Shown here one piece after another: positions 37,428 through 38,357 of a stretch of DNA of 64,000 nt; within the stretch, counting starts at the first letter, position 1, and every line of letters begins with the position of its first letter. Location of the stretch: assembly GCF_000027125.1 (NCBI RefSeq), contig NC_017626.1. One strand, given 5' to 3'. This DNA comes from Escherichia coli 042. GTDB taxonomy: Bacteria; Pseudomonadota; Gammaproteobacteria; Enterobacterales; Enterobacteriaceae. The translations under genes and the position numbers were made by a program. A model generated the notes under the pieces. That model was not told the origin of the DNA, searched no databases, and saw only the letters and a program-made list of their open reading frames with translations.

Positions 37428-37608
37428 CCGCTCTCCTTATTAAGGAGCGCAACACCAGCACCTTACCCTTACGCTGCCTGTCGATACTGGTTTACGTATG
37501 TTGAGTCGCCATGTTGCACTCCGGATCAGAGCACTACCTGCGGCACCACCCGTCCGGTAGCCAGGACTTGAAATGGGTTCGATCCGGCGCAACTTCCCAA
37601 CAGTCAGG

Positions 37609-37659
37609 ATTATAAATCTCATTATCTTAATTGCAACACTGTCCAGAGGTGGTTATAAT
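37609..37659. promoter_or_regulatory. Divergent promoter pair sharing a palindromic -35 hexamer, unit 1
   Basis: TTGCAA (37631-37636, self-complementary) with TATAAT at 37654-37659 (17-nt spacer, plus strand) and TATAAT on the minus strand at 37614-37609 (16-nt spacer). Confidence 0.6.
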
Positions 37660-37666
37660 TCGTTCG

Positions 37667-37747
37667 TTGAGATGCCATGTTGCACTATCAGTAACTTAAC
37701 ATCAAAGTAGTAAATAAAAGAACCTGCCTCACCAGCAGGTTTTTTTA
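37667..37747 (+). ncRNA. orzO: About 81-nt small RNA, candidate antitoxin (Orz-like), unit 1
   Basis: Starts 7-8 nt after the plus-strand -10 and ends at hairpin acctgc...gcaggt + T7 (37722-37747); its 5' 21 nt match plus-strand 37500-37520 inside the toxin 5' UTR at 19/21 positions, i.e. complementary to the toxin mRNA. Confidence 0.65.
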
Positions 37748-37945
37748 TTTTCTGCGATCTACTTTCCAGATATTTTTTGCCAATAGCCCACCATAAATAT
37801 TCACATCCCGGTTAAACGGTACGTTGAATATAAAATCGATGAATTTATAAATAAAAATGAGTTATATGATGAATTAATAAAAACAGTAATCATTTTATTA
37901 AAGGGGGAAGCGGTTTTCCCCCTTAGATGCGTTTCAATTTGCCCG

Positions 37946-38035
37946 TTACTTCAACAAATCAATCAACCGTAACAGAGCCACTAATAGCTCCAGTACAGCA
38001 ATGAGCACGGTTAACTTTTGTGTCAGCGTGTCCAT
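37946..38035 (-). CDS. zorP: 29-aa hydrophobic peptide, candidate type I toxin (Zor-like), unit 2
   Basis: Identical peptide to unit 1 with two synonymous changes; same SD spacing. Confidence 0.7.
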   Translation of the reverse strand: MDTLTQKLTVLIAVLELLVALLRLIDLLK

Positions 38036-38216
38036 TCGCTCTCCTTATTAAGGAGCGCAACACCAGCACCTTACCCTTACACTGCCTGTCGATACTGGTT
38101 TACGTATGTTGGACCACGATGTTGCACTCCGGATCAGGGCACCACCTGCAGCACCACCCGTCCGGTAGCCAGGACTTAAAATTGGTCCGATCCGGCGCAA
38201 CGTCCCAACCGTCTGG

Positions 38217-38267
38217 ATTATAAATCTCATTATCTTAATTGCAACGGGGTCCACCGATGGTTATAAT
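38217..38267. promoter_or_regulatory. Divergent promoter pair sharing palindromic TTGCAA -35, unit 2
   Basis: TTGCAA 38239-38244; TATAAT 38262-38267 (plus strand); TATAAT on minus strand at 38222-38217. Confidence 0.6.
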
Positions 38268-38273
38268 TCGTTC

Positions 38274-38357
38274 GTTGGAACACGATGTTGCACAGGCTGC
38301 GGTGTTGGGCCTGAAAATAGTAAATAAAAGAACCTGCCTCACCAGCAGGTTTTTTTA
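38274..38357 (+). ncRNA. orzP: About 84-nt small RNA, candidate antitoxin (Orz-like), unit 2
   Basis: Same architecture as unit 1; 5' region matches plus-strand 38108-38127 in the unit-2 toxin 5' UTR (19/20); ends at identical hairpin + T7. Confidence 0.65.

Follow-up and report, generated by a model that had tools for sequence, protein, structure and literature searches.

The 64,000-nucleotide stretch of Escherichia coli 042 DNA analysed here (hereafter, the window) carries a two-copy zor/orz system with a 7-nt core that acts as an address, and each small RNA (sRNA) very probably represses the toxin mRNA of its own unit only. The original prediction of cognate-specific antitoxin recognition is supported by complementarity found only in the cognate pairs, by the energy gap between cognate and cross hybrids, and by published experiments on the O and P types. 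The locus, its mechanism, the specificity core and the idea of crosstalk avoidance are already published; zor/orz specificity was established experimentally in 2014 and at population level in 2024. The window adds one more strain to this picture, with a combination of a Q-like and a P unit that encode identical toxin peptides.

Organisation of the zor/orz locus

The matches to the Rfam family OrzO-P (RF02083), together with the yehK/yehL flanks, identify the region as the E. coli zor/orz type I toxin-antitoxin locus. OrzO-P, whose gathering score is 60 bits, matches both sRNAs over its full length on the plus strand, with 91.7 bits at 37673-37746 and 101.3 bits at 38281-38356. The two-unit array is flanked by a yehK-like gene and by yehL, and this yehK/yehL position matches that in annotated genomes. 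The two tandem units (window 37285-38360) are about 608 bp each and 91% identical to one another, and the region 37250-38400 has 100% identity to E. coli Ecol_316.

As reported in Table 1, each unit consists of a 29-codon ORF on the minus strand preceded by a 174-nt leader, of back-to-back sigma-70 promoters and, on the plus strand, of a small transcript that ends in a terminator. The translations of the two ORFs confirmed that the toxin peptides are identical, as had been anticipated: both encode MDTLTQKLTVLIAVLELLVALLRLIDLLK, the zorO product of the EHEC-type locus L001, from coding sequences with 2 differences in 90 nt. The -35 TTGCAA and -10 TATAAT promoters of zor/orz are present, and the hexamers of unit 1 are those given for zor and orz (PMC11264685). 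In unit 1, the predicted +1 of the toxin mRNA puts the RBS AAGGAG at +164..+169 and the ATG at +175, which is the published zorO layout, and the terminator hairpin lies about 310 nt from this +1, in agreement with the published transcript size. The +1 of the unit 1 sRNA was fixed from the published V1 numbering and verified on L001; the transcript ends for this strain were assigned by homology, and the promoters and terminators of both units agree with the published ones.

The -35 hexamer TTGCAA (37631-37636 and 38239-38244) is palindromic and is used by the zor and orz promoters in opposite directions. Since one hexamer is common to both promoters, binding of RNA polymerase at the toxin promoter and at the antitoxin promoter may exclude each other.

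Table 1. Features of the two zor/orz units, in window coordinates
Feature	Coordinates	Strand	Basis and remarks
Probable zor terminator, unit 1	37293..37316	-	GC-rich hairpin 3' of toxin stop
zor toxin CDS, unit 1	37338..37427	-	ORF list; 29 aa, ZorO peptide as encoded by the L001 zorO unit
Toxin mRNA 5' UTR, unit 1 (174 nt)	37428..37601	-	Promoter scan; predicted +1 at 37601, 7 nt past the -10 hexamer
UTR box 1 (target of sRNA 1)	37500..37520	-	GTTGAGTCGCCATGTTGCACT
Promoters, unit 1, back-to-back	37609..37659		zor -10 37614-37609; shared -35 TTGCAA 37631-37636; orz -10 37654-37659
Orz sRNA, unit 1 (Q-like type)	37666..37746	+	Rfam OrzO-P; variable core +5..+11 at 37670-37676
sRNA box 1	37666-37686	+	GTTGAGATGCCATGTTGCACT
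sRNA terminator stem, unit 1	37721-37741	+	T-run after the stem
Probable zor terminator, unit 2	37901..37924	-	GC-rich hairpin 3' of toxin stop
zor toxin CDS, unit 2	37946..38035	-	29-aa peptide as in unit 1, without the T3S change of ZorP
Toxin mRNA 5' UTR, unit 2 (174 nt)	38036..38209	-	Predicted +1 at 38209
UTR box 2	38108..38127 (or 38128)	-	GTTGGACCACGATGTTGCAC; same sequence as the EHEC-type zorP box
Promoters, unit 2, back-to-back	38217..38267		Promoter scan; shared -35 TTGCAA at 38239-38244
OrzP-type sRNA, unit 2	38274..38356	+	Rfam OrzO-P; V1 (+9..+11) is ACG at 38282-38284
sRNA box 2	38274-38293 (or 38294)	+	GTTGGAACACGATGTTGCAC

Pairing boxes and their divergence between the units

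Sequence comparison placed the four boxes where they had been predicted. In each unit the sRNA box and the UTR box are direct repeats on the same strand and, since the sRNA is read from the plus strand and the toxin mRNA from the minus strand, the two RNAs are complementary. Nucleotides +1..+20/21 of the sRNA pair with +82..+102 of the mRNA, in the 5' UTR of the toxin from the same unit, and each unit has a single mismatch inside the pairing. The pairing is 6(1)14 in unit 1, where +7 is an A.A mismatch and +8 a U.G wobble, and 6(1)13 in unit 2, in which the A.G mismatch at +7 is the sole difference. When the sRNA boxes were searched on both strands of the 64-kb window with up to 3 mismatches, each matched itself and its own UTR box only; the numbers of matches expected by chance were 0.01 and 0.00.

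[quoted passage not shown] The target box at +82..+102 corresponds to the 3' end of this region as defined on zorO.

The two units had been expected to differ by 5-6 nt in the boxes, and this count holds, with all the DNA differences within box positions 5-11. The resulting cores are Q-like in unit 1 (sRNA AGAUGCC, target DNA AGTCGCC) and of the P type in unit 2 (sRNA GAACACG, target DNA GACCACG). The differences are concentrated in the boxes, where 11 of 42 positions differ between the units; the coding sequence and the UTR outside the box together have 11 differences in 243 positions (Fisher p = 4e-5). By segment, the divergence is 2.2% in the toxin CDS, 2.8% in the UTR 3' of the box, 8.6% in the UTR 5' of the box, 23.8% in the target box, 28.6% in the sRNA box, 55.6% in the middle part of the sRNA and 0% in its terminator. 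Moreover, at +5, +6, +9 and +11, which are four of the five changed positions of the UTR box, the same substitution occurs in the UTR box and in the sRNA box (chance ~1e-4). From the distinct cores, each sRNA is predicted to repress its own toxin mRNA only, despite the same encoded peptide.

Position +7 of the sRNA (window 37672 and 38280, with targets at 37506 and 38114) is unpaired in the P (A.G), Q-like (A.A) and B2-type (G.A) pairs, and is paired with the target in the O type only. This conserved mismatch may modulate repression, or cleavage by RNase III.

Predicted duplexes of cognate and non-cognate pairs

The pairing register was set on the EHEC-type locus L001, taking the first G of GTTG as +1. 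On this locus the register returned GAA at +9..+11 for OrzO and ACG for OrzP, with 18 nt paired in OrzO/zorO and 15 of 18 in OrzP/zorO, as published (PMC3919570).

RNA duplex prediction for the four sRNA/mRNA combinations of the window bore out the expected preference, the cognate hybrids being about 12 kcal/mol more stable than the cross hybrids. Over 20 nt, the energies are -30.0 and -30.8 kcal/mol for the cognate pairs and -18.2 and -18.1 kcal/mol for the cross pairs; once opening energies are included, the totals become -12 to -20 and -0.3 to -6.4 kcal/mol, respectively. The OrzP/zorO pair, inert in experiment, computes to -17.2 kcal/mol. Along the full mRNA, the best duplex of each sRNA falls at the box. 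Opening the target site takes about 11 kcal/mol when the leader is full-length but 4.8-6.4 kcal/mol in its delta-28 form, and this lower cost shows the same tendency as the published processing-dependent exposure of the EAP region. According to the published empirical rule, repression requires 15 or more contiguous bp, or else 17 or more bp containing one internal mismatch; in a matrix of 5 sRNAs and 3 targets, only the cognate types reach these values, and the longest run in the cross pairs is 9-10 bp, with a best n(1)m of 10-13.

One could argue that the boxes differ while the modules are not insulated, the flanks (GUUG and AUGUUGCAC), the wobbles and downstream pairing being sufficient for repression and the divergence of the core being neutral. 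In fact, the cross pairs, in register, keep 15 Watson-Crick and 1-3 G.U pairs and, when 30 nt of the sRNA are considered, the cross duplexes reach -26 to -31 kcal/mol through pairing upstream of the box that is not copy-specific. However, OrzP fails to repress zorO at all in spite of its complementarity at 15 of 18 positions, and repression is lost with one mismatch at +9 (PMC3919570). In addition, the first 18 nt alone suffice for repression according to the literature, the cross pairs fail the published rule, and neutral drift would not give matched changes at four positions or five compensatory pairs. On this evidence we regard the lack of insulation as improbable, and recognition of the cognate mRNA through the core as the preferred reading.

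This reading leaves room for a graded effect. On the zorP target the Q-like sRNA forms three G.U wobbles and has only three true mismatches, the critical +9 position being a wobble; weak cross-repression at high sRNA levels is possible, given the 9-10 contiguous bp and the wobbles in the cross pairs.

The middle part of the sRNA, 55.6% different between the units, was also considered as a second copy-specific pairing region. It was rejected as a specificity determinant because sRNA 2 forms its extended duplex no less well on mRNA 1, which is not its cognate, and because the first 18 nt suffice in the literature.

Box classes and covariation across strains

We surveyed 39 loci, drawn from complete genomes of E. 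coli, from three genomes of other Escherichia and from 19 metagenome contigs. Their cognate boxes group into discrete classes: O, with GGTACGAAA as sRNA core and GGTACGAAA as target core (here and below given as DNA); P, with GGAACACGA and GGACCACGA; Q-like, with GAGATGCCA and GAGTCGCCA; and the B2/O18-type, with sRNA core GGGGCGCCA on a Q-type target. Minor box variants occur in L007 and L031. One target type, Q, is thus served by two different sRNA cores, and three of the four types keep +7 unpaired.

Among the six distinct natural cognate pairs, 94.2% of the cells are paired. Five base pairs (+5, +6, +9, +10 and +11) change on both sides, with three different Watson-Crick pair types each at +6 and +11. 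None of 500 partner shuffles reached the observed pairing or covariation score, and the slid registers were 27-41% paired. In this respect the zor/orz boxes are a clear case, found in nature, of compensatory co-evolution between two RNAs.

The sRNA box and the UTR box lie in 26-nt direct repeats 166 bp apart, so that the covariation might come from gene conversion or template switching at the DNA level rather than from selection on RNA pairing: the repeats are on the same strand and have conserved flanks, and one copying event would move a core variant in a single step. No cognate pair, however, has identical boxes, and many of the lasting differences are transitions that give G.U wobbles (O at +13; Q at +8; B2-type at +5 and +20; L031 at +2). 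Such G.U-compatible residual differences point to selection at the RNA level and not to DNA homogenisation. Besides, homologous recombination would need much longer conserved flanks than the 4-9 nt seen here. Non-identical boxes and wobble-type differences led us to judge conversion between the boxes unlikely, and we give this origin of the covariation a very small chance, below that of non-insulated modules; selection for RNA pairing is the explanation retained here.

In the collection of 5,426 complete E. coli genomes, Q-like boxes occur in about 800-850, and a Q-like unit at least 99% identical from target box through sRNA box was found in 794. As aggregate counts, the Q-type target box is present in 1,097 complete genomes and sRNA boxes able to pair with it in 1,094 (855 + 239), in close agreement. 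Among the GTDB species representatives outside E. coli, an exact 27-nt pattern from the zor UTR, a search that would miss diverged homologues, matched only three genomes, all of Escherichia.

The original prediction had described the two modules as having diverged in a coordinated way. This holds in that the box changes are matched on the two sides, but it should not be taken to mean divergence in situ in this genome. The recurrence of discrete classes across strains and other Escherichia argues, from sequence comparison, that the box types are old and reassorted among strains rather than diverged within this genome.

A fourth sRNA core, GTTGGGGCGCCATGTTGCAT, is found with a Q-type target in the single-copy loci of 239 complete genomes, for example at 1216-1402 of L028 (NZ_CP007275.1), and also in E. 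coli ATCC 11775 (H109/H117). An O-P tandem with the EHEC boxes is present in Escherichia whittamii (L003 12030-12900), which indicates that the box types either predate the species boundary or crossed it.

Type assignment of the two units

Unit 2 has exactly the zorP/orzP boxes of the yehL-proximal unit of L001, and its OrzP box is also that of K-12. The peptide of unit 2, instead, has the Thr3 of the ZorO variant, versus Ser3 (T3S) in unit 2 of L001. Unit 2 is therefore P by RNA type and O by peptide type.

As for unit 1, strain 602354 (L029) has a unit with identical boxes whose toxin is ZorQ with A20S, and on this single, indirect link we consider unit 1 as probably of the zorQ/orzQ type. 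A20S is the common peptide variant of that type, whereas the unit in the window encodes Ala20, as in the ZorO peptide. A 2024 survey in mSystems described zorQ/orzQ as a third type, besides O and P, suggested that the variable pairing region may prevent crosstalk, and reported that 99.8% of the Orz sRNAs keep the potential to repress the cognate zor (PMC11264685). In the literature searched, we found no experiment on the Q-like type or on Q crosstalk. Insulation of the Q-like and P types from each other is predicted here by analogy with O versus P.

Reassorted arrays

Two complete genomes carry arrays in which toxin and neighbouring sRNA are of different types. Strain JNE23-001 (L039, NZ_AP045064.1 2348500-2353000) has the order Q/Q, O/O, zor(Q-UTR)/orzP, and strain SL112 (L026, NZ_CP043486.1 2305322-2307928) has zor(P-UTR)/orzQ followed by P/P. 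In both, every toxin mRNA has an sRNA elsewhere in the array that passes the pairing rule, as expected of trans-acting antitoxins, and one sRNA is left as an orphan. Hybrids of a toxin with a non-cognate sRNA are very rare: no match of at least 99% to the exact hybrid segments was found in the 5,426 genomes.

In the metagenome scan (19 contigs), L013 also shows non-cognate neighbours, and L020 is a candidate for the same kind of arrangement. An assembly chimera was suspected for these two contigs; similar arrangements were then found in the complete genomes of JNE23-001 and SL112.

These arrays could be taken to mean that the zor/orz array consists of orthogonal 'address' modules that can be reassorted, and not of fixed gene pairs, with tuning through the +7 mismatch and the wobbles, or with asymmetric crosstalk. 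We consider this wider proposal rather unlikely, if less so than the two alternatives discussed above. If true, tuning of repression or of RNase III cleavage by the +7 mismatch and the wobbles would go beyond the published picture, and the same applies to a Q-like sRNA that partly cross-represses zorP through its three G.U pairs, which would amount to asymmetric crosstalk.

Two further arrangements were observed. In strain VTB97448v a second, partial copy of orzP lies 153 nt past the first (L027 1380 and 1533), and in strain 602354 (L029 3124-3302) 12 extra bases lie between the zorP and orzP boxes, the spacing being 178 versus 166.

Proposed mechanism and comparison with known systems

In the mechanism that we propose, the minus strand of each unit would give a toxin mRNA with a structured 174-nt 5' UTR followed by the coding sequence of a hydrophobic 29-aa membrane toxin, and the divergent back-to-back promoter would give an Orz sRNA of about 81-83 nt from the plus strand. 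Through its single-stranded 5' end (+1 to about +20), the sRNA would pair with +82..+102 of the UTR, and this pairing would lead to a translation block and to RNase III-dependent decay of the toxin mRNA. The invariant flanks GUUG and AUGUUGCA would enclose the hypervariable 7-nt core (+5..+11), which would serve as the address. The anatomy, the family, the cognate-only complementarity and the covariation come from the present analysis, whereas the mechanism and the loss of cross-repression are taken from the literature on the zorO/OrzO/OrzP trio.

In that literature, the zorO RBS (+164..+169) is held in a stem, and the EAP region, which may be a ribosome standby site, becomes accessible upon 5' processing (delta-28) (Wen, Harp & Fozo 2017, PMC5397157; PMC3919570). 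There it is bound by the first 18 nt of OrzO, enough on their own for repression; translation is inhibited, and repression needs RNase III and not Hfq (PMC3919570, PMC5397157). As for specificity, OrzO but not OrzP rescues zorO toxicity (Wen et al. 2014, PMC3919570); exchange of the V1 core (3 nt, +9..+11) swaps specificity, a single mismatch at +9 is enough to lose repression, and compensatory mutations in zorO bring it back (PMC3919570). Toxicity of overexpressed ZorO and its rescue by OrzO have been shown for the zorO/OrzO pair of EDL933 only (PMC3919570). Insulation of duplicated, RNA-controlled toxin modules would explain how several near-identical toxins are controlled independently.

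The closest known system shares with the window the yehK-yehL locus, the tandem layout, the 29-aa toxin, the promoters and the position of the boxes, as well as a variable 5' core of the sRNA that discriminates between paralogous toxin mRNAs. This is zorO-orzO/zorP-orzP of E. coli O157:H7 EDL933, reportedly described by Fozo et al. in 2010. Three differences separate it from the window. The sRNA core of the yehK-proximal unit is GUUGAGAUGCCAUG in the window, whereas OrzO has GUUGGUACGAAAUG; the same unit pairs as 6(1)14 with one wobble, against 18 contiguous pairs in OrzO/zorO; and both toxins of the window are the ZorO peptide, whereas ZorP of EDL933 is T3S. With the third locus type, zorQ/orzQ (PMC11264685), the window would have in common the boxes of unit 1, which recur in the L029 unit that encodes ZorQ A20S; the toxin of unit 1 differs in being the ZorO peptide.

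The Sib RNAs (2010, ref. 46 in PMC3919570) are comparable in that near-identical copies of a toxin and its antisense RNA coexist in one genome, each sRNA picking its own mRNA through short variable recognition sequences. The Sib RNAs, however, are cis-antisense RNAs with complete overlap and with two recognition domains, whereas the Orz RNAs are divergently encoded, have about 20 nt in common with the target and use one recognition domain. On the other hand, tisB/istR-1 of E. coli, as well as shoB/ohsC and dinQ/agrB, resemble zor/orz in that the 5' end of a divergent sRNA pairs far 5' of a sequestered RBS, the target is a standby site exposed after 5' processing, and decay depends on RNase III. 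Unlike zor/orz, these are single-copy loci with no discrimination between paralogues, and their toxins have no sequence homology.

The neighbouring yehL gene

The yehL gene downstream of the array (38468-39556, plus strand) has an in-frame TAG at codon 233 (window 39164-39166). Ecol_316, otherwise the closest genome, has CAG at this codon and an intact yehL of 362 aa; the TAG means that yehL is a pseudogene in the source strain, unless it is a sequencing error. In the comparison of window 34250-41400 with Ecol_316 (L002), the two sequences are identical up to 39057 and show 98 differences in the next ~2.3 kb. This abrupt change suggests a recombination junction inside yehL, at about 39058.
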